A stretch of 63,970 nucleotides of DNA, counting the filler. It is 9 parts of 9 records of this genome, joined end to end, with 100 filler letters (N's around TTAATTAATTAA, not from the genome) between each part and the next. Parts side by side here need not be neighbours in the genome. Positions count along the whole stretch, not along the records: positions 1 to 14,095 come from SRR31147125_56031; 8 more parts are not named here. One strand, written 5' to 3'. Both the position numbers and the translations under genes were made by a program. Of this stretch, positions 5,043-14,195 are shown piece after piece (within the stretch, counting starts at the first letter, position 1; each line of letters opens with the position of its first letter). Under the pieces are notes generated by a model. It made no database searches. It was not told the DNA's origin and saw nothing but the letters and a program-made list of their open reading frames with translations.

Positions 5043-8000
5043 GTGAACACATTGAGACAGAAACAGTCCATACTACCGACGAACTGGCGGACCGTTCGAG
5101 TGTTTATCTCGTCGACATTCCAGGATATGCATGACGAGAGAGATCATCTTGTAAAATTTGTTTTTCCGGAATTGAAAAGCAAACTGCGCACGCACCGGAT
5201 ACATCTGATTGATGTAGACCTTCGATGGGGAGTAAGCGAACAGGATGCTGAGAGTGGGCGAGCGCTGGATATCTGTCTGGATGAAATCGATGCGTGCAGA
5301 CCATATTTCGTATGTTTTCTCGGGCATCGATATGGTCATATCCCACGAGGGCACTCCCACTCCATAACAGCTCAGGAAGTCTATCACGGTGTCCTTCACA
5401 AAGGCGTACCCCGTCAGATTGTAGATCTGGACCGAATAATCGATGGTCGTTTCGAGGGGATTGTATTAACTCAACAGCAAATCGATTGCCTGAGGCGGAG
5501 TTATTGTTGGCAGGCAGATAAAGCTAAATATTTGATTCTTGATACCGTCACCGAGAAGGACTATGCAATAATTCGTGAAGTTTTCAAGCGATACTATGCC
5601 TATCAACGTAACCGCAGTCTTTTCTTTTTCCGTTCAAAAAGTCTCTCCACAAAACTTTCAGAAGAAAGGGGCGCTCTGTTCTTTGATTCAGATCCGCTTC
5701 TACAGGAGCGGATGAGAACGCTCAAGCAAACCATCAGGGAACAAAACATTATCTGGTATGAATACGATGATGTGGAAGCAGTTGGTGAAGAAATCAGTGA
5801 ACTTCTCTTCAAAAAAATCATGGAAGAGGATACCCAGTCGATCTCGGAAGAGCACAAAACGTGGGTGGAAAGTGAGAACGAATTACAAGAACTTTTTGTC
5901 ACCAATTGTACGAGGCATTTTGTAGGACGGAAGGATCTGATGGGACAATTGCATTCGTTTGTAACGAGCGAGGATGCGCGTAAAATCATGTTGATTGATG
6001 GAGATCCAGGGATCGGTAAATCCGCCCTGCTGGCGAATTTTGAAAGAAGGATCGCTCACGAATTCCCGGACTGGATAATTCTGTCTCACTTTGTTGGTGC
6101 ATCCCCGGATTCTACCCGCCTGAGAGAAACCTTATACCGGTTATATCTGTCGCTTTCGAAAGAGGAAGAAGGCGAGGTGGAGATTCCGGACACTATCGAA
6201 GAATTGAGTTCTTTGTTTTCCTCAACGGTGACTGAACGTTCCGCCAGTACACAAATTGTACTTATTGTCGACGGATTGAACCAGCTACATTCGCTGGACC
6301 AGAACCATGCGATGAGGTGGATTCCGGAGAGAATCTCTGGTCATGTGAAAATAATCCTCAGCGGGCTTTCGGCGGAGATGCAGACAAAACTCCGGACATA
6401 CAGTCCCTTGCCGGAGAAATTTGAAGTTTGTTCTCTAAAAGACTATGATATCGAAGAGATGGTGTCGTCTTACCTTGGAGAAATCAGACGAGAGTTTCCT
6501 ACCCCTGAGATTGAAGCGGCTTTTTTTGAAAAAATCAGAGCCGGACATCCGCTGTATATAAAAGTTGCGCTGGAAGAATTACGATTGCATGGACACTTCA
6601 AAGAGTTGTCAGAACGTATCGGACAGTTCCCGAACACCCTGGCAGAACTGTTTGACCAGGTGTTGCAGCGGATTGAATCTGATATCGATCCCGCTCTGGT
6701 ACGTGAATCTATGTCGCTTATCGCATGCGGCAGATATGGGATGAGGGCCGAAGAATTACAGTCGTTACTGGCCGATTTCGGCCCTGAAGGATCTTCCTCT
6801 GAGGGGGTGGAAAAATTACCCGATATGATGTGGGCTCGTTTATATCGAGCCTTCGGCTCATATTTGTTCGAACGTTCCGAGGTGATTGATTTTTTTCATG
6901 GCCAGCTCAAGGAGGCCGTCGAAGCGCGCTACTTGTCTGCAGATCCTGATCGTAGAAGGTATCATCTGAAAATCGCAGAGTATTTTGAGCAACGATGGAA
7001 AGAGCCATATCTGAGAGCGTTGGACGAGCTCCCGTATCAGCGTGTTGAAGCCGGAGATATCAATGGATTGTCACGGGTGCTGATGAATCTGGTATTCATA
7101 GAAGAGAAGTGTTCCCACCAGATGGCCTGGTCGCTGATGAATGACTTCCAGCATATCTCTTCTGCACATATTGTGAAACCTCCACTTTGTACCGTTCGGG
7201 TAAAGCCCGGCGAGCCGGTGCAATCTAAATCCTCTGAATCTGTTTCTCCTGGCGATAACAGAGTCTCTGGAGAGTACGGTTTCTTCTGCCCTTTCTGTCT
7301 CGCCTGGAGCTCGGTTGATGCTTCCGAGTTAGGGGCGATTATCACATGCCCCGCGTGCACCGCCCAATTACAATTAAACACGTTCACCATTGAATCTGAC
7401 TGGCAGCCGACAGAACCAGTTCTAGAGGTAAGTAATCTAACGGAAAATACCAAGCTTCACGTTCCTGAGGTTGTCGTCACATTCGCTGATTTTGTCAAAC
7501 GTCACATTGATATCATCGCCGATCATCCCTCTCTCACACTCCAGCAAGCAGCAAATGAACCAGAGGATTCGCCGCTTGCGTTCGCTGCAAGCGAGTCAAT
7601 GAGGGAAAACCCCTCCAATCGCGCCTGGTTCAGATGGCGGAATAAACCAAACAATACAAGTGCCAGTGAGATAACACTGAGAGGGCATACTGACTGGGTG
7701 TATGATTGCGACTACTCCCCGGACGGGTACACCATTGTCTCTGTTTCCGCAGATAAATCGATCAGGCTCTGGGATTCAACTACCGGGGAAACCATCAGCC
7801 TGATTGACAATCAAGAGGATCGCGTGAGGGCGTGCACCTTCTCTCCGGATGGACAACGTATCGCAACACTTCAGAAAAACAGAGTCGAAATGTGGGACAG
7901 GTCTTCCGGCCGGAAGATTAGCTCTTTGGCTGATCATTCTAACAGCCTTTATGCCTGCAGTTTTTCTCCGGATGGGGGGCGGATAGCAGCCGGTGGTGCC

Positions 8001-8474
8001 GATAAAACTGTGAAAATCTGGGACCTCAATACGGGAGAGGTTCTCAATACCATTCACATGTATACCTCAGAGCAGTTAAGCGGAGTTTGGAGCCTGTACA
8101 CTGATGACATAAAAGTTGTCCAGTACTCACCAGACGGTAGCCGGATTCTTGTCAGTTCAGGGTTTGACGAGAATGCCCTGAGAGTTTATGATTCCCATAC
8201 CGGAGAGAAACTGGTTGGTTTTGGGAGCCATGGTTATAATCAGAATTTTCAATGCGCAGCATTTTCACCTGACGGCACGAGGGTCGTTTCTGTGTCGAGT
8301 AAAGGGCCTGCTAAAATATGGGATGCCTGGAGCGGAGAACTGATTTCTGATCTGCCTCACTTTGATGGTAATGCTGAGGCCTGCGCATATTCCCGGATGG
8401 GCGCTATATTCTGGTTGGAAAAAAGTCTCTGTATGTGTGGTCGGCCGACTCACTGCTCTTTCTCGGAACACTGA
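5043..8474 (+). CDS. DUF4062-NACHT/STAND NTPase-WD40 protein (TEP1/NLR-like), N-terminal part; frameshifted near 8392
   Basis: VRVFISSTFQDMHDERD...DLRWGV...CLDEID...FLGHRYG (DUF4062); Walker A GDPGIGKS (6000-6023); Walker B LIVDGLNQL; CPFC..CPAC Zn ribbon; WD40 repeats from ~7670. Adding one C at CCC 8392-8394 restores YSPDGRYILVGKKSLYVW and joins the next ORF. Confidence 0.88.
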   Translation: MNTLRQKQSILPTNWRTVRVFISSTFQDMHDERDHLVKFVFPELKSKLRTHRIHLIDVDLRWGVSEQDAESGRALDICLDEIDACRPYFVCFLGHRYGHIPRGHSHSITAQEVYHGVLHKGVPRQIVDLDRIIDGRFEGIVLTQQQIDCLRRSYCWQADKAKYLILDTVTEKDYAIIREVFKRYYAYQRNRSLFFFRSKSLSTKLSEERGALFFDSDPLLQERMRTLKQTIREQNIIWYEYDDVEAVGEEISELLFKKIMEEDTQSISEEHKTWVESENELQELFVTNCTRHFVGRKDLMGQLHSFVTSEDARKIMLIDGDPGIGKSALLANFERRIAHEFPDWIILSHFVGASPDSTRLRETLYRLYLSLSKEEEGEVEIPDTIEELSSLFSSTVTERSASTQIVLIVDGLNQLHSLDQNHAMRWIPERISGHVKIILSGLSAEMQTKLRTYSPLPEKFEVCSLKDYDIEEMVSSYLGEIRREFPTPEIEAAFFEKIRAGHPLYIKVALEELRLHGHFKELSERIGQFPNTLAELFDQVLQRIESDIDPALVRESMSLIACGRYGMRAEELQSLLADFGPEGSSSEGVEKLPDMMWARLYRAFGSYLFERSEVIDFFHGQLKEAVEARYLSADPDRRRYHLKIAEYFEQRWKEPYLRALDELPYQRVEAGDINGLSRVLMNLVFIEEKCSHQMAWSLMNDFQHISSAHIVKPPLCTVRVKPGEPVQSKSSESVSPGDNRVSGEYGFFCPFCLAWSSVDASELGAIITCPACTAQLQLNTFTIESDWQPTEPVLEVSNLTENTKLHVPEVVVTFADFVKRHIDIIADHPSLTLQQAANEPEDSPLAFAASESMRENPSNRAWFRWRNKPNNTSASEITLRGHTDWVYDCDYSPDGYTIVSVSADKSIRLWDSTTGETISLIDNQEDRVRACTFSPDGQRIATLQKNRVEMWDRSSGRKISSLADHSNSLYACSFSPDGGRIAAGGADKTVKIWDLNTGEVLNTIHMYTSEQLSGVWSLYTDDIKVVQYSPDGSRILVSSGFDENALRVYDSHTGEKLVGFGSHGYNQNFQCAAFSPDGTRVVSVSSKGPAKIWDAWSGELISDLPHFDGNAEACAYSRMGAIFWLEKSLCMCGRPTHCSFSEH

Positions 8475-9856
8475 AAAGTGACTCAGCCAGTATGAATTCC
8501 TTTTGTTTTTCTCCCGATGGTCACCAAATCGCTGCTGCTACGTATAACCACACCCTGCGAGTGATCCCAATGGCAGCCCTTGAATGTGATCGGTCAGAGT
8601 CTGATTCGAATAGCCTGGATAAAATGTACGGCGTCTCACCTGATGGTAAGTACCTGTTATGTGAACAAGAAGGGCGCCTCAATGTCTGTTCTCCGGAAAA
8701 CGGGAGTTTGATTCGTGAGTGGGCTGGAAGGATGAAAGATGTCGCAACATACAATTGGTCTCCTGATGGCAGTCAAGTAATCCTGGGCTCAGGTGAGGGA
8801 GACGAAGGGTTTAAAATTTTTGACAATGGGTCAGGATATGAAGTGAGCCAATTTGCTATCCCTAAATCTGACACAGAGGATGATCCTGACGTAGAGATGT
8901 CCCAGCGAGTCTGGGCAGGTTTGCGCCGAAAAGCACAATTTTGCCACTATTCCCCTGATGGCAGCGATCTGCTTCTTGCATTCTGGGAGCCGTTCCTGCG
9001 GATAGTGGAATGTCGTACCGGAAAACAGCGAATGCTCTTGGAAGGTTTACCGGGAGGCCTCCTGGGAAATAACCGATCATGTTGTTACTCCCCTGATGGC
9101 AGGCGGGTAGTCGCCGGTTGCCAGGCAGACAAACTCTTTGTCTGGGATGCAGATACTGGAACGGTAATAACTGAGCGAGAAACCAGCCAGTCTCAATGCC
9201 GTTATTCACCAGATGGTCGTACGATGGCAACTATCTCCCATGATGGCGGGTCAAAACCCTGGTCCGTCAAGGTTTGGAACATGCGGACATATACAGTGTC
9301 CCACACTCTATATGAATCTTCAGCGAGACTCACGGATTGTATGTTTACCCCGGATGCCCAGTGTATAGTAGCCTATGGAGATGACAATATAGTGAGAATG
9401 TGGGAGGTTGTGACAGGGAAACTGATTGGTCTCTATGTTGCCAGAAACAAATTGAATAATGTGATTGTAATCAAGGGGGGCCTGGAGGTCGTTTTGCATA
9501 GCGATAGAGATGGACTGGTGCTTCTGGATCTATGCAACCTTGAACCTGATGCATTGTTCGTAACTGCAACTCGCCTTTTTTCACCACTACTTGGAACCTG
9601 GGACCTAGAGGTTACTGGCCGCTGTCAGTGGTGTGGAAATTTGTTTCCAGTTCCTGACTATATTCTAGAATGTATCCAATCTCTAACCAACCATCTACAA
9701 GACGGCCAGTCTCCATGCGAAGCTTTACCTGATAGCGCCTGGGAAGATCCTTCCCTCAAGACGAATTGTCCTCATTGCAAACATCCGTTACGCTTTAATC
9801 CTTTTAAGGTCGACAAGGATGACAATATAGTATCAGAGTTTGGAACTCTTCATTGA
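8435..9856 (+). CDS. WD40 repeats plus C-terminal Zn ribbon; C-terminal part of the frameshifted STAND protein
   Basis: Six xSPDG motifs plus FTPDA; CQWC...CPHC. Continuous with the upstream ORF after a +1 C repair (fused ~1604 aa, 5043-9856). Confidence 0.85.
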   Translation: MWSADSLLFLGTLKSDSASMNSFCFSPDGHQIAAATYNHTLRVIPMAALECDRSESDSNSLDKMYGVSPDGKYLLCEQEGRLNVCSPENGSLIREWAGRMKDVATYNWSPDGSQVILGSGEGDEGFKIFDNGSGYEVSQFAIPKSDTEDDPDVEMSQRVWAGLRRKAQFCHYSPDGSDLLLAFWEPFLRIVECRTGKQRMLLEGLPGGLLGNNRSCCYSPDGRRVVAGCQADKLFVWDADTGTVITERETSQSQCRYSPDGRTMATISHDGGSKPWSVKVWNMRTYTVSHTLYESSARLTDCMFTPDAQCIVAYGDDNIVRMWEVVTGKLIGLYVARNKLNNVIVIKGGLEVVLHSDRDGLVLLDLCNLEPDALFVTATRLFSPLLGTWDLEVTGRCQWCGNLFPVPDYILECIQSLTNHLQDGQSPCEALPDSAWEDPSLKTNCPHCKHPLRFNPFKVDKDDNIVSEFGTLH

Positions 9857-10320
9857 TCCTTAACCCCAGAGCTGAAAGAAACTCCCCGACTATGTCGTCA
9901 GCCACTGTACAATTATACCCCACCCCTGCTGTCCGGGCATTAATAGGGAACAAGGCGGGCCAGATACTTCTCTTGAAGCGTGCAAACACTGAATATGGCA
10001 ATAACCTCTGGTGCCTGCCCGGAGGGAAAGTTGATGTTGGGCAGACGGTTGAAGAAGCCCTTGAGAATGAGCTCTCGGAGGAACTGTCAGTCAGGCTTGT
10101 TTCGGCCCGGTTTTTCTTCTACCAGGATAGCCTGCCCATGGAACCGGGTGGGCTTCATTTCATTAATTTCTATTTCCACTGCGAAGTAGAAGGTGAACCG
10201 GTCATTAATGAAGAGTCTTCGGATTTTGCGTGGGTTGGGTCTGAAGAACTGAGTGACTATAAAATTACATTCAGAAACGACGAGGCCATTCACCGTCATT
10301 TTGTCCCAAACCTTACCTGA
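9853..10320 (+). CDS. Nudix hydrolase
   Basis: ILLLKR...WCLPGGKVDVGQTVEEALENELSEELSV (variant Nudix box). TTG start overlaps the upstream stop; ATG 9892 is an alternative start. Confidence 0.88.
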   Translation: MILNPRAERNSPTMSSATVQLYPTPAVRALIGNKAGQILLLKRANTEYGNNLWCLPGGKVDVGQTVEEALENELSEELSVRLVSARFFFYQDSLPMEPGGLHFINFYFHCEVEGEPVINEESSDFAWVGSEELSDYKITFRNDEAIHRHFVPNLT

Positions 10321-10343
10321 ATAGTGTCTTATAAGAGGATACA

Positions 10344-12962
10344 ATGGATAGCAATAATACTGCTTATTTAAAGGATATGGTTACTGAGCAGGTCCGTATA
10401 TTCACTCAGAACCGTGCCGGTTTTAAGGAATTACAAAATGTTATTATCGGCACCCTGCAAAATAAAGCAGGCGGGTTGCCGGGGGCTCCTCTTATCCATG
10501 GCCGGGTAAAGCAGATAGATAGCTTTGCAGAGAAGTGCATTCGCAAATGCGAAAAGTATGCAAAACCCGCCTGGCAGCTGACTGATCTGTGCGGAGTCCG
10601 GGTGGTGGTCAACTCCCTGGACGCCATTCCCGCTGTCCGCAAATGTATCGAAGATACGTTTCTGATTCTTGAAGACGAAGATACTTCCGTGCGGTTGGGA
10701 GATATGGAATTCGGTTATCAGTCCATTCATTATATCGTCGCACTCGATCCCGACAAAAGCAGTCACTACTCAACAACCGGCACACGTATTCCCAAGAAGT
10801 TGTTTGCTGCACGCACCGGCAGTCAGGCCCTGAAGGAATCACTTCCTGCCGGACCCAGGTTCAAGGCGGAAGTCCAGGTGCGGTCACTCCTGCAGCATGC
10901 CTGGTCGGATGCGGTTCACGATAATCTCTATAAAACCGAGATGAAAAACAAGCCACAGCATCTGCTGAGGGAGTCAGCATTGGTGGCAGCTCTCCTCGAG
11001 GAAGCGGACAAATCGATTGTTACCTTGAAGGGAGGGGCGGATCAATACCGGTCATATTACGGCGCGTACATGACTCCCGGGGAAATGGAACAAGAGATAG
11101 CAATACAGAGAATTATTCTGGCACATAACCCCGGAAATAGAAATGCCGCGCTGAAGATCGCTCGGCTGTCTGATTGCCTGGGATCGGAGGCGGATACCAA
11201 GAGCGTGGAAAAAGATCTGGCCCCGTTTGAAAAATCCGGGGATGCAGCAATACTCAGGGAATTGGGGATGGTTCGTCTGAGGAATGGGAAAAAGGTGACG
11301 GGAAGAAAGAATATTGAAAAATCGACAGAGATGCACCCTGAAGACCCGGACACATGGTGCGAGCTCGGCCTGGCCTATTTCCAGGCAAAGGACTACAGCC
11401 GGGCACTTACATACTATCAGAAGGCATTTGAGGTCGATCCTGACTACCCGAGAGCCCTGATGCGTTTTATCGAGTGCAAAATCCTCGACGGCAGTGACGG
11501 GACCCTTGAGTTTCTGCCGCTTATCAAACAAAATCTCGAACGCGCAATGGATATTTCATACCGGAGAATCGCTGCGGGAGTTCATATGCCTCATGCCTGG
11601 TACGATATAGGATTCTTCGCATTGCTCCTCGACAGGGTAGACGAGAGTCTTGAAGCCTACGGCAAGGCAATTTTGAGCACTCTGTCGGGTGCTACGGTTG
11701 AAGGCGTATATAATTCGCTTACCTCTATTCATCGGAAAATTCGCCAGAAGAATATCGCGCTTAACGAGGGCATAAGGCTTGTCAGGTCATATCTGTGCGT
11801 TGTGCTTGTTGGCAGATTCAACAGGAAGCCCCATGCCTATCTGACGAAATGCGATGCCGAGCTCGATGGGTTCAGCACATTGTCACCTTGTACGCGAGAT
11901 AAAAAAAGATCGACCTATAAAAAGGGAAGGCCGATAGTCATTGTCGCCGGCTCATGCTCCCATGCGTCCGAAAATGTCCTGAGCGGATACACTGAGATTC
12001 TCGAAGAGGTCTTTGCCGGGTTTAACGGAATCATCTGCTGTGGTGGGACCGATGCCGGGATATCACGCATCATCGGCAATCTTGGTGGATTGGGTGGTCA
12101 GGCTGTCAGGTTGGGATATTTGCCCCAAAATGAAATCTGTATGGAAGGATATGAGTGTATCCATACCTCATCCGGCTCTTTCAGCGTCTATGAACCGATT
12201 ATGATGTGGAGTGACCTGCTCGTCAGCGGTATTGCCCCCAACTCCATACGGGTTATGGGAATTGGCGGAGGAAGGGTGGCTGCGATGGAATATCAGCTGG
12301 CCCTGTTGCTGGGGGCTCAAGTTGGGATTCTTGCCGACAGCGGACGGGCGAGCAATAAAATACTTGATGATGGCGACTGGATTTCGATATCTGCGGTGCC
12401 GGCTCATTCCGACGTACCACGGAAACAGCTGCTGAGCCTGCCGGCGGATATTGAGACACTTCGTTCATTCATCTACCCGCCGTTTCAGTCAAAACTTATC
12501 GACGAAGCTGATCGGGAAGCGATTGCAGAAGGGATGCACGAGAAATATACCGGCCAGATGAAGAAAGAAGTAGCCGATAAATTGCAAAATCTTGCGCCAT
12601 GGGAGGAGCTCAACAATACGTTCAAATCATCCAATTACGGATTCGTTGATCACGTCGATCAAAAGCTTGCGCGATTAGATCTTACCTTGCAAAAAGTTTC
12701 TGATACGAAGATCAGGCTTTATACATTTTCAGAAACCGAGATAAGAAAACTGGCGGAGATGGAACATGGCCGTTGGGTAAATGAGCGCCTTGAAGATGGC
12801 TGGAGGCTGGGGGAGCGTGACGACCAGAGGCGGACCCGGCCACAACTGATATCCTGGAAAGATCTTGACGACAATGAAAGAAAGAAGGATGTCAGAGCGG
12901 TAAAGGCGCTTCCGGAAATTCTCGCTGCAAAGGGGTATGAAATCGTACCGATAAAAAAGTGA
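10344..12962 (+). CDS. RelA/SpoT-type alarmone synthetase domain fused to TPR, SLOG-like and RyR domains
   Basis: GRVKQIDSFAEK, DLCGVRV, GYQSIHY, EVQVRSLLQHAW...HDNLYK (synthetase); TPR PDTWCELGLAYFQAKDYSRALTYYQKAFEVDP; SLOG-like IVIVAG..CCGGTDAGI..GIGGGRVAAMEY; RyR LAEMEHGRWVNERLEDGWRLG..LISWKDL..ERKKD. AAGAGGA RBS. Confidence 0.85.
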   Translation: MDSNNTAYLKDMVTEQVRIFTQNRAGFKELQNVIIGTLQNKAGGLPGAPLIHGRVKQIDSFAEKCIRKCEKYAKPAWQLTDLCGVRVVVNSLDAIPAVRKCIEDTFLILEDEDTSVRLGDMEFGYQSIHYIVALDPDKSSHYSTTGTRIPKKLFAARTGSQALKESLPAGPRFKAEVQVRSLLQHAWSDAVHDNLYKTEMKNKPQHLLRESALVAALLEEADKSIVTLKGGADQYRSYYGAYMTPGEMEQEIAIQRIILAHNPGNRNAALKIARLSDCLGSEADTKSVEKDLAPFEKSGDAAILRELGMVRLRNGKKVTGRKNIEKSTEMHPEDPDTWCELGLAYFQAKDYSRALTYYQKAFEVDPDYPRALMRFIECKILDGSDGTLEFLPLIKQNLERAMDISYRRIAAGVHMPHAWYDIGFFALLLDRVDESLEAYGKAILSTLSGATVEGVYNSLTSIHRKIRQKNIALNEGIRLVRSYLCVVLVGRFNRKPHAYLTKCDAELDGFSTLSPCTRDKKRSTYKKGRPIVIVAGSCSHASENVLSGYTEILEEVFAGFNGIICCGGTDAGISRIIGNLGGLGGQAVRLGYLPQNEICMEGYECIHTSSGSFSVYEPIMMWSDLLVSGIAPNSIRVMGIGGGRVAAMEYQLALLLGAQVGILADSGRASNKILDDGDWISISAVPAHSDVPRKQLLSLPADIETLRSFIYPPFQSKLIDEADREAIAEGMHEKYTGQMKKEVADKLQNLAPWEELNNTFKSSNYGFVDHVDQKLARLDLTLQKVSDTKIRLYTFSETEIRKLAEMEHGRWVNERLEDGWRLGERDDQRRTRPQLISWKDLDDNERKKDVRAVKALPEILAAKGYEIVPIKK

Positions 12963-13053: not shown

Positions 13054-14085
13054 TCAAACCGCCTCATCTCGCAGCAGCAACTCACTCATTACTGCCTTCC
13101 GCACATCCTCCGCCAGGCGATCCTTGATCACATGGTAGAAGTCGCTGTACGGGACCAGGTGTTTCTGGCACAGCGCCAATTCGTGGGACAGATAGGTTAT
13201 TGCGTAGTATTGTCTGTGGTCATCATCGCAGTGGATCAGATAATCGATGATCTGGTGTCTTCGCAAAATTCCTATATAGAGTGTGTCGAGCTTCTTGAAA
13301 TCTGAGGCATCCTGGTCCTGCCGATTTCGACTCAGGTTGGCGAGCACCATCTTGTTGAGCGCCTCTCCGTTCGGTGAGAAAAGACCGGTGGCGATATAGG
13401 CATCTGTGCCGTCCGAATCGAAATAGACGCATTCGACCTGGTTATAGGAGATATGGATGTTTCTCTTTATCGCCAGTGCCACATCCGGGTGTGTGATTAT
13501 CCTGTTGAGCTTCTCCAGAAACTCCTTTTCAACCGGTGAAATGCTGCGGGTTCCGAGAAGCCTGGTTTGTGGGGTGAGCGATTGTTCGCTGACGATGCGT
13601 CTTTTGACGAGGTCCTTGATTTTTTCCTGATCTCCCTGGATCGTGTCCAGGTTGACGACATCTTCAAAAATGGACAGAAACAGGTCGTCGTAAAATTGCG
13701 GTGCGCCGTTGTTGATGCGGCATTTCTGCGGCAATACAATGAAGTCATGCTTGAACCGGCCCCCTACCCAGCGCAGGTTTTTCCGGTCGGGTGAGAAATA
13801 CAGAGGGAGTCCTTCCGTTAATTCAGTGACAAGATCCCGCAGCGAATAACGCGTGGTCTTACCGTTGAGCCGATATACTTTTGCGTCTGCCAGCTTTTTC
13901 AACACGAAGTCATTTTTTCCGACTGCATGGGACGGTTGTTTCAGGTAGGCTGCGAGTTGTTTGCGGAGGATGTATTGATTGGCGAGGATCTTTTCGTCGT
14001 CATCTTCTTCGTCGAGCTCTTTACTCAGTTCGATCATCAGCACATCCGCCAGTACCCGCACCATTTTGGAGTAGTTGTGGTCCAT
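13054..14085 (-). CDS. Hypothetical protein (343 aa), possibly 5'-truncated by the contig end
   Basis: Long open frame with globular composition and no motif recognised. Frame stays open to the contig end 10 nt upstream. Confidence 0.65.
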   Translation of the reverse strand: MDHNYSKMVRVLADVLMIELSKELDEEDDDEKILANQYILRKQLAAYLKQPSHAVGKNDFVLKKLADAKVYRLNGKTTRYSLRDLVTELTEGLPLYFSPDRKNLRWVGGRFKHDFIVLPQKCRINNGAPQFYDDLFLSIFEDVVNLDTIQGDQEKIKDLVKRRIVSEQSLTPQTRLLGTRSISPVEKEFLEKLNRIITHPDVALAIKRNIHISYNQVECVYFDSDGTDAYIATGLFSPNGEALNKMVLANLSRNRQDQDASDFKKLDTLYIGILRRHQIIDYLIHCDDDHRQYYAITYLSHELALCQKHLVPYSDFYHVIKDRLAEDVRKAVMSELLLRDEAV

Positions 14086-14095
14086 ACGGAAGGAA

Positions 14096-14195
14096 NNNNN
14101 NNNNNNNNNNNNNNNNNNNNNNNNNNNNNNNNNNNNNNNTTAATTAATTAANNNNNNNNNNNNNNNNNNNNNNNNNNNNNNNNNNNNNNNNNNNN
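14096..14195. other. Artificial contig spacer
   Basis: N44-TTAATTAATTAA-N44; stop codons in all six frames. Confidence 0.98.

Follow-up and report, generated by a model that had tools for sequence, protein, structure and literature searches.

What would an alarmone synthetase do when it is built into one protein with sensor modules otherwise met in bacterial immunity and in eukaryotic calcium channels? The question is raised by an open reading frame (ORF) at 10344..12962 (+ strand) of a 63,970-nucleotide (nt) stretch of DNA, here called the window, in which parts of nine records of one genome are joined end to end. Its product, referred to below as the target, almost certainly comprises four parts: a synthetase domain like those of RelP and RelQ, tetratricopeptide repeats (TPRs), a SLOG domain of the TRPM-type (LSDAT) family and two RyR repeats in tandem. 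Involvement in a conflict system is quite likely, and the target probably links NAD-based antiviral signaling to alarmone-driven growth arrest. Our preferred reading goes further, by analogy with the circuits of Thoeris and TRPM2: the target could be a sensor-gated small alarmone synthetase that serves an immune module based on NAD+ cleavage as its downstream enzyme. Taken as a whole chain of steps this reading is tentative, and its chance falls a little short of even.

Domain layout of the target protein

The ORF listing of the window gives a single + strand frame with an ATG start, encoding 872 amino acids (aa). A contig from an independent public run matches positions 8000-12962 with zero differences within the target ORF; because that run may be the source sample, the match serves as a check on the assembly and not as independent biology. 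The full-length predicted model has a predicted local distance difference test score (pLDDT) of 89.9 and a predicted template modeling score (pTM) of 0.83. Conservation was read from an alignment of 75 sequences, namely the window copy and 74 of 96 family matches; the other 22 were excluded because they were partial, matched in pieces or fused to a Nudix domain. The sequence-only reading of this DNA had proposed a four-part fusion, and Pfam, profile and fold matches agree with it domain by domain. In Foldseek comparisons of the models, RelQ was found for the synthetase, TRPM2 for the SLOG domain and RyR3 Repeat12 for the RyR module.

The RelA/SpoT-type synthetase domain, with a RelP/RelQ-like fold, occupies residues 1–250 (10344..11093, +), as judged from Pfam, PDB profile matches, Foldseek and conservation. 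Pfam RelA_SpoT was matched at residues 53–199 (E 5.4e-14; nt 10500-10940), and neither Pfam nor NCBIfam matched an HD, TGS or ACT family in the target at E up to 1, in agreement with the earlier placement of synthetase motifs at ~10495-10940 without these three domains. The RSH motifs RxKxxxSxxxK, DxxGxR, GYxSxH and ExQxRT (PF04607) are all present, as is expected of a small alarmone synthetase, with an insertion of 30–40 residues separating the GY motif from the EVQVR motif. Eight positions are invariant in the family (R54, K56, K64, D81, E176, Q178, H185 and H192; 75/75) and five more are nearly so (Y125, Y196 and K197, 74/75 each; H129, 73/75; S60, 72/75). The domain is predicted, with good confidence, to be active.

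When the domain profile was compared with the PDB, the best solved matches were RelP/RelQ (3l9d, E 2.8e-23; 2be3, 3.3e-22; 6fgk, 1.5e-20; 5ded, 1.7e-20), and weaker matches were obtained for CapRel (3.1e-7), FaRel2 (~3e-3) and long Rel/RelA (3.5e-3 or weaker). RelQ (5dec/5ded) was also the top Foldseek match of the full-length model, with a template modeling (TM) score on the target of 0.73–0.74, and CapRel came at rank 42. Activity as a tRNA pyrophosphokinase, offered as an alternative in the sequence-only reading, is less likely because RelP/RelQ match the catalytic domain much better (E 3e-23 to 2e-20) than CapRel (3e-7) or FaRel2 (3e-3) do, by profile and by fold. It had also been pointed out that VH replaces the usual terminal EH. 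This is true of the window copy, and RelP/RelQ do show EH, but the change carries no weight because residue 191 is variable across the family (G in 20, V in 18, A in 14, S in 9 and others among the 75 sequences) while H192 is invariant (75/75). VH in place of EH was therefore rejected as a sign of inactivity.

The helical TPR region follows at residues 251–520 (11094..11903, +), delimited by Pfam and the model, and it confirms the TPRs previously placed at ~11100-11700. It holds one canonical repeat (Pfam TPR_1, residues 335–368, E 4.4e-13) with divergent repeats on either side, matched by weaker TPR families that include TPR-S (PF20308, E 0.0078), and residues ~245 to 520 are all-helical in the full-length predicted model.

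The SLOG domain spans residues 521–715 (11904..12488, +), as assigned by VIA-align, Foldseek and LSDAT_prok. Residues 521–872 were folded with AlphaFold2 (AF2) from a 60-sequence alignment built from window and locus DNA (pLDDT 92.5, pTM 0.92). Compared by VIA-align with ~48,000 chains, residues 1–195 of this model gave a SLOG fold, for which the best match was TM1055 (1rcu; Z 18.1, root-mean-square deviation 3.0, 165 aligned). It was followed by a molybdenum-cofactor carrier protein (MCP; 2iz5, Z 15.3), TRPM2 (8sr7, 14.4), TT1887 (14.4), TRPM7 (13.7), LOG (13.0), DprA (12.4) and the SLOG domain of ThsA (11.0); TRPM5 and TRPM8 chains were also matched, and unrelated Rossmann-like folds begin only near Z 8. 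Foldseek of the combined SLOG–RyR model returned TRPM2 (6d73, E 2.4e-6), then TRPM8, TRPM4 and MCP. By sequence, 47/60 family segments matched Pfam LSDAT_prok (E up to 0.01, best 1.2e-11), and no SLOG family other than LSDAT_prok was found by Pfam among the 60 segments.

The SLOG motifs are conserved in 73–75 of the 75 sequences: G567-G568-T569 begins at nt 12042, and G639..E649-Y650 lies at 12258-12293. The glycine loops are formed by G567-G568-T569 and G642-G643, and E649 is invariant. These positions coincide exactly with those at which the motifs GGT..GI and GGG..A..EY had first been noticed, and the fold matches (Z 11.0–18.1) bear out the assignment. It had been said that a central domain of some other fold would undo the proposal; VIA-align, Foldseek and Pfam all give SLOG. 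By analogy with its relatives, the domain fits the part of a candidate nucleotide-ligand sensor.

The remaining residues, 716–872 (12489..12962 with the stop codon, +), form tandem RyR repeats equivalent to RyR Repeat1-2, or the RY12 clamshell, on the evidence of profile, Foldseek and alignment. Pfam called only the second repeat (residues 788–867, E 9.8e-12). The family profile matched RyR1-3 in the PDB with E down to 1e-34, in two stretches on isolated Repeat1-2 constructs (2–4 overall), and Foldseek aligned ~203 columns to the 205-residue RyR3 Repeat12 domain (TM-score on target 0.56–0.64). For RyR3 Repeat12 solved with ATP (6uhh), the Foldseek E was 1.6e-6. VIA-align gave Z 8.5 for the RyR module. 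The two C-terminal repeats recognized in the sequence-only reading are thus real, because the profile gives two stretches and the Foldseek alignment spans the whole RyR3 Repeat12 domain.

In RY12 of RyR3, Trp880 is reported to stack on the adenine of AMP-PCP or ADP and Trp994 to stack on the second ligand, with Lys884, Arg895 and Arg1018 binding phosphate (PMC12627627). The RY12 pocket of RyR1, as described in PMC13642953, consists of W882, W996, R886, R897, H904, R1000, W1005 and R1020, takes two ADP and is termed an ADP sensor. Alignment to the RyR2 repeats places the predicted pocket residues of the target at Y735 in repeat 1 and at W811, R815 and W820 in repeat 2, all within residues 716–872. 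W811 aligns with the H-x-x-W tryptophan of each RyR2 repeat (equivalent to RyR1 W882/W996 and RyR3 W994), R815 with the +4 basic residue and W820 with the G-W tryptophan of RyR repeats. The family conserves W811 in 70/75 sequences, R815 in 73/75 and W820 in 75/75; positions 825 and 830 are basic in 73/75, and the stacking position of repeat 1 (Y735) is Tyr in 57/75 and Phe in 13/75. A nucleotide pocket in the RyR module is likely because the adenine-stacking and phosphate-binding residues of RY12 align and are conserved. The function of bacterial RyR domains had been described as largely unknown; it now has a lead, in that eukaryotic Repeat1-2 is, according to these reports, an adenine-nucleotide sensor.

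Family distribution and recurrent partners

A word-indexed protein search returned 96 family proteins, 28–74% identical, for most of which the sole annotation is 'RyR domain-containing protein' or 'ppGpp synthetase/RelA/SpoT-type nucleotidyltransferase'. Among them 23/96 carry a precomputed LSDAT_prok match, and a NUDIX domain is fused in 5/96 (P0076, P0082, P0090, P0091 and P0095). In a profile search of 1.84 billion representatives, the best 150 proteins all had E below 1e-250, ~10 of these 150 being extended N-terminally by 125–155 residues, and 5,696 proteins, partial relatives included, were found at E up to 1e-30; the family amounts to hundreds of 50%-identity clusters. One-genome-per-species contigs contain at least 442 relatives (442 of 600 pattern matches), retrieved with an alignment-based scan; a single-protein query retrieved none. 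From these, 80 loci were kept, which together with the first 25 kb of the window make up the 81 sources used below.

The 80 loci cover Planctomycetota, Actinomycetota, Bacteroidota, Chloroflexota, Verrucomicrobiota, Acidobacteriota and others, and 7/80 are archaeal records: Thermoplasmata (two), Methanobacterium, Methanomicrobiales, Bathyarchaeia, Promethearchaeota and a Euryarchaeota metagenome-assembled genome (MAG). One cultured isolate is included, Thiocapsa marina 5811 (L060). Among matches on viral contigs, 0/77 reach SLOG or RyR, all lying within query residues 5–353 (the catalytic region), and 0/17 plasmid records cover 80% of the query. Canonical long RSHs coexist with a target-family protein in three bacterial genomes, and the target-family protein is the sole RelA_SpoT match in a Methanobacterium genome and a Pirellulales MAG, assemblies that may be incomplete. 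The shorter relatives that a search brought up comprise only family fragments and catalytic-domain-only proteins, with no clear parent family of small alarmone synthetases (SAS) followed by TPRs among them. One paralogue, L158:4528-7590 (+), at a second locus of genome G001, has a duplicated catalytic head, since two tandem synthetase-domain matches (7–164 and 167–385) precede its TPR, SLOG and RyR parts.

Directly upstream of the target in the window lies a gene for a Nudix hydrolase of 155 aa (9853..10320, +; Pfam NUDIX E 5.1e-19; PADLOC candidate PDC-S07, unvalidated, E 2.8e-17). Its start overlaps the upstream ORF stop by 4 nt and its end is 23 nt before the target, whose synthetase head matches another unvalidated PADLOC candidate model (PDC-S33, E 1.8e-12). 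Nudix neighbors were sought in the 81 sources by a six-frame search with a profile seeded from this upstream gene. A Nudix gene lies within 300 nt of the target in 25/81 loci and overlaps the target frame or is fused in 17/81, so that it is adjacent, overlapping or fused in 42/81; it is within 3 kb in a further 3/81 and farther away in 4/81.

The window Nudix protein is closest to solved enzymes of the nucleoside triphosphate (NTP) type, NudI (2.5e-11) and MutT (7.6e-9), followed by GDP-mannose mannosyl hydrolase and a CTPase, and the name ADP-ribose pyrophosphatase appears on just one weak solved match (2.3e-4). Across 29 Nudix partners, E73 and E77 of the Nudix box are invariant and E76 nearly invariant. 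The partners form two sequence subtypes, ~40–49% and ~20–29% identical to the window copy, of which the window-like one is often encoded downstream of the synthetase and commonly has no first Glu in its Nudix box.

Farther upstream, at 5043..9856 (+), Pfam identifies a gene that combines DUF4062 (a predicted TIR-like NADase) with a STAND NTPase and a WD40 sensor, present as two ORFs at 5043-8474 and 8435-9856. DUF4062 was matched at residues 19–113 (E 1.5e-17), AAA_16 and WD40 were also matched, and the match to the Avs1b model was weak. A one-base difference in a C-run near 8391-8395 splits the sensor gene. An assembly error, and not a pseudogene, is the probable cause of this split, because a canonical WD40 blade goes on in the other frame and the independent contig carries one extra C behind 8391; the two WD40 ORFs are probably one gene of ~1,600 aa, like its relatives. 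A zinc-ribbon-like CxxC...CxxC sits by each WD40 half, CPFC..CPAC before the repeats of the first half and CQWC..CPHC after those of the second.

The window order, all on the + strand, is thus DUF4062–STAND–WD40, Nudix and target, the target being the last gene of the block; the sequence-only reading had overlooked both upstream genes. The DUF4062 gene stands two genes upstream of a SLOG-bearing protein on the same strand, an arrangement like the pairing of a TIR-type NADase gene with a SLOG protein in Thoeris. According to 2026 preprints, DUF4062 is a TIR-like NADase that converts NAD+ into ADP-ribose and nicotinamide, and one 2026 preprint describes it as the N-terminal effector of the Avs2 STAND protein.

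NADase neighbors were collected within ±10 kb with jackhmmer profiles seeded from the window DUF4062 domain and from two TIR neighbors. TIR was found in 36/81 loci, DUF4062 in 24/81 and either in 50/81, often fused to a STAND NTPase; 47/49 TIR segments were confirmed as TIR_2 by Pfam, and 13 also match ThsB_TIR. Of the 73 loci whose target ORF is intact, 49 have an NADase gene; in 37 one is no more than 3 kb away, in 31 one this close also shares the target's strand, and 28 have an NADase–STAND fusion. For comparison, five host genomes (34.6 Mb) hold 24 TIR_2 and 10 DUF4062 matches, or about one per Mb, and in four of the five a TIR/DUF4062 match lies in or beside the target locus. The only DUF4062 match of one of them (G002) sits at or beside that locus, as do the only TIR and the only DUF4062 match of Thiocapsa. 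At a second family locus in one genome, Nudix, target and DUF4062–STAND genes follow one another on a single strand, separated by 13 and 83 nt. These are the three components of the window block, rearranged, and the parts recur around family members in many phyla with varying order. It had been allowed that the target could act alone; this is disfavored because Nudix (adjacent, overlapping or fused, 42/81) and TIR/DUF4062 (50/81) partners recur at the loci.

A proposed gated synthetase and its competing explanations

The synthetase half of the target has several known relatives. RelQ (YjbM/SAS1) and RelP (YwaC/SAS2) share its catalytic fold and motifs and are the best matches for residues 1–250, but they are single-domain proteins of ~200–250 aa, to which the target adds ~620 residues (TPR, SLOG and RyR) and the insertion between GY and EVQVR, and from which it differs in lacking EH. 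DsRel and Tde-SAS of Treponema denticola (SAS-TPR) have a synthetase followed by TPRs, as in the target. The TPR domain in Tde-SAS is reported to cut catalytic efficiency ~18-fold, and its products are given as ppGpp > pppGpp and pGpp, with some ppApp (PMC10434055). At 410 aa, Tde-SAS lacks both SLOG and RyR and is paired with an HD-type small alarmone hydrolase (SAH), whereas the partner of the target is a Nudix protein; likewise, DsRel consists of a synthetase and C-terminal TPRs only, whereas SLOG and RyR follow the TPRs in the target. The toxSAS proteins (CapRel, FaRel2 and PhRel) combine a RelA/SpoT-type enzyme, an adjacent neutralizing gene, a fused sensor region and an antiphage setting, a layout that the target locus may parallel, but the sequence relation is remote (CapRel 3e-7, FaRel2 3e-3), the partner here is a Nudix hydrolase and the target is much larger.

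On the sensor side, type I Thoeris (ThsB TIR with ThsA SIR2-SLOG) places a TIR-type NADase gene by a SLOG protein, as at the target loci, and TIR products are read there by the SLOG domain according to a TIR survey (10.64898/2025.12.03.692087). The likeness extends to the ThsA SLOG domain itself (Z 11.0 to the target) and to the neighboring TIRs, 13/49 of which match ThsB_TIR. Unlike Thoeris, the output would be an alarmone synthetase and not SIR2, the SLOG domain belongs to the TRPM (LSDAT) family, the role of NADase often falls to DUF4062 or TIR fused to a STAND NTPase, and a Nudix gene and RyR modules are added. TRPM2, which is among the best fold matches, joins an LSDAT SLOG (MHR1/2) to a Nudix module (NUDT9-H), as the two occur together here, and its MHR1/2, which is LSDAT-type, is reported to bind ADP-ribose (PMC13143021); the target, however, lacks an ion channel, and its Nudix partner is a separate NTP-type enzyme. 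The ryanodine receptor RY12 shares the tandem-repeat clamshell, and its Trp, Arg and Trp align with W811, R815 and W820, but the repeat-1 stacking position is Tyr or Phe in place of Trp and the context is bacterial. Finally, the upstream gene of the window has the DUF4062–STAND–repeat layout of Avs2-NIR, one of the DUF4062 ('NIR') defenses that also include Swarozyc, Vulcan, Vesta and Evangelion.

From these parallels we propose that the target uses a logic like that of Thoeris and TRPM2 with an alarmone synthetase as its output. The STAND/WD40 protein would sense infection, and its DUF4062 domain (TIR at other loci) would cleave NAD+ to ADP-ribose or a derivative. This NADase-made nucleotide would bind the SLOG domain, as ADP-ribose binds TRPM2 MHR1/2 and 3'-cyclic ADP-ribose (3'cADPR) binds ThsA, while the RyR clamshell would bind a further adenine nucleotide, which could be ADP/ATP, the signal or the product. 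Binding would release a TPR brake, as in the Treponema SAS-TPR enzyme, and the synthetase would then move pyrophosphate from ATP to GDP/GTP (or ADP/ATP), so that (p)ppGpp or (p)ppApp would rise and growth would stop. The Nudix enzyme would most likely hydrolyze the alarmone in place of the HD hydrolase of long RSHs, keeping the system off before infection and resetting it afterwards; this assignment is favored because the enzyme is NTP-type and a Thermus Nudix enzyme degrades ppGpp (cited in PMC3153485). The ligand-gated (p)ppGpp/(p)ppApp synthetase put forward in the sequence-only reading fits the invariant catalytic motifs, the SLOG sensor fold and the RyR pocket residues; its activity stands as a prediction from sequence.

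A number of observations weigh against this chain. The Nudix partner is NTP-type and unlike ADP-ribose pyrophosphatase, and it therefore lends no support to an ADP-ribose signal; its box in the window copy lacks the first Glu and the Arg (Q64 and N72), and no Nudix gene was found by the six-frame profile search in 32/81 loci, several of them on short contigs. The window SLOG domain is marginal to LSDAT_prok (PF18171) by sequence (E 0.023 and 0.0023; 17.7 bits against a cut-off of 25.4). No TIR/DUF4062 gene lies within ±10 kb in 24/73 loci with an intact target, and NADase–STAND proteins are presented in a 2026 preprint as self-sufficient NAD+-depleting defenses. The neighborhood counts themselves come from ORFs of the 81 sources that were crudely called and then clustered, the DUF4062 set was Pfam-checked for the window and five genomes only, and the background NADase rate likewise rests on five genomes. 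Co-location may also not mean coupling, since defense genes cluster in islands.

Some of the same facts can be read as a self-contained switch made of the Nudix enzyme and the synthetase, a toxin–antitoxin-like or stress pair in which the TPR, SLOG and RyR parts would sense, for example, a phage protein (through the TPRs) or the ADP/ATP ratio (through RyR), the NADase–STAND genes being other tenants of the island. Nudix is indeed the tightest partner (42/81 loci; fused in 5/96 proteins), the 24/73 loci just mentioned have no nearby NADase gene, Avs2-type DUF4062 proteins reportedly defend alone, RY12 has been described as an ADP sensor (PMC13642953) and PADLOC has single-gene candidates that match each protein separately (PDC-S33 and PDC-S07). 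We nevertheless find this explanation rather doubtful: NADase genes are far above the background of ~one per Mb, 31/73 loci have one within 3 kb on the target's strand, the trio recurs, reordered, at the second locus of one genome, and SLOG is a known receiver of TIR products in Thoeris.

The wider use of the RyR module leads to another explanation. The tandem module alone is shared by 27 further locus proteins; of ten RyR-tail proteins scanned with Pfam, six are TrkA_N/RCK, three AAA-type and one RyR alone, and in 9/11 TrkA-type proteins two N-terminal hydrophobic segments flank a pore-loop-like stretch. Taken with the conserved RyR pocket residues and with the presence of the family in archaea as the sole RelA_SpoT match of a genome searched (G006), this could mean that the synthetase makes a dedicated messenger or modifies some other acceptor (ADP-ribose, ATP or tRNA) and that the RyR modules of channel-like and AAA neighbors receive the product, which would make the target a signal generator upstream of membrane and ATPase effectors. 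We consider this unlikely, as the window has no second RyR gene, RyR-only partners occur in only about a quarter of loci and the target keeps the RelP/RelQ signature (GY tyrosine, 74/75) and is remote from the tRNA-modifying CapRel and FaRel2. That closeness to housekeeping RelP/RelQ would in turn suit a housekeeping accessory synthetase that tunes the stringent response to metabolic state and has no conflict role; the bacterial hosts also have canonical long RSHs, and no full-length member was found on viral contigs (0/77) or plasmids (0/17). The distribution is patchy across bacteria and archaea, however, the window setting is a low-GC island and the neighborhood is dominated by TIR, DUF4062, STAND and SLATT genes, and a purely housekeeping role is accordingly very unlikely.

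A literature search did not find the architecture or its link to NADases described; Burroughs et al. 2015, which defined SLOG/LSDAT, and supplementary tables were outside the reach of that search, and a prior computational mention is possible. The main texts of the DUF4062 preprints contain SLOG, NUDIX, RyR and ppGpp 0 times each and describe no downstream synthetase partner; the TIR survey (10.64898/2025.12.03.692087) contains ppGpp, RyR, NUDIX and alarmone 0 times each, and the RSH classification papers contain RyR and TPR 0 times each. In Kaur et al. 2020 a RelA nucleotidyltransferase domain comes up solely as a rare signal generator within vWA-MoxR systems.

If the proposed gating is correct, alarmone synthesis would be a new output of NADase-based bacterial immunity, and bacterial RyR domains would gain a testable role as adenine-nucleotide sensors. 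The target would also make the SLOG and RY12 modules, which gate human TRPM2 and ryanodine receptors, open to study in a simple soluble system, and would explain the co-occurrence of Nudix, SLOG and RyR modules in eukaryotic calcium channels. Given the size of the family and its spread over bacteria and archaea, findings for a single member would annotate thousands of genes whose only label at present is 'RyR domain-containing protein'. A broader and doubtful proposal is that the family is a missing branch of NAD-based immunity, in which a TIR or DUF4062 NADase signal would be read by SLOG and RyR and turned into an alarmone burst, tying Thoeris-like signaling to the machinery of the stringent response. 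The tandem RyR module would then be a portable receptor, common to the synthetase, the two-transmembrane RCK channel-like proteins and the AAA ATPases of these neighborhoods; were it such a receptor, a single prokaryotic nucleotide-signaling toolkit would be the ancestor of both the SLOG and Nudix modules in TRPM2 and the RY12 sensor in ryanodine receptors.

Genomic setting and other genes at the loci

The region from 5 to 14 kb of the window looks like an inserted island. Its GC content is 0.45–0.51, compared with 0.57–0.60 over the initial 4 kb. Ordinary genes flank it: upstream, an MMPL/RND transporter, a LolA-like protein and a TetR regulator; downstream, a LysR regulator, dehydrogenases and a racemase. 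No tRNA gene was found in the window. On the opposite strand beyond the target, 13054-14085 (-) holds a 343-aa ORF to which Pfam assigns no family and which an N-run truncates at ~14086-14140. It clusters with ~630–640-aa proteins that are paired with a second, ~630-aa GHKL-type (HATPase_c_3) protein beside family members (loci L023, L035, L056 and L058), and it could be either one more tenant of the island or a fifth partner that recurs.

The TrkA/RCK–RyR proteins (~570–640 aa) lie beside synthetase genes, for example L007:5885-7708 (+), and carry a pore-loop-like 'YxSxQLF..SGD'; they look, from their sequences, like nucleotide-gated channel-type proteins and were seen at L003, L007, L024, L029, L036, L045, L047, L061, L067, L068 and L075. 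Proteins of ~850–900 aa with a central AAA/MoxR-like ATPase and an RyR tail occur at L007:2458-5016 (-), L023:7832-10435 (+), L050:7823-10462 (+) and L064:360-3059 (+), and at L050 the AAA–RyR gene directly precedes a family member that is itself without an RyR tail.

Proteins with the SLATT two-transmembrane (2TM) effector domain are found in six loci (L004, L010, L016, L039, L042 and L065). These SLATT_1/DUF4231 proteins adjoin synthetase genes, as at L016:8129-9778 (+), and five of the six have an N-terminal domain that weakly matches nucleoside 2-deoxyribosyltransferase. Near other members (L009, L013, L018, L026 and L034), a ClpB-like double-AAA protein (~760 aa) is paired with a YbjN-family protein (~165–195 aa).

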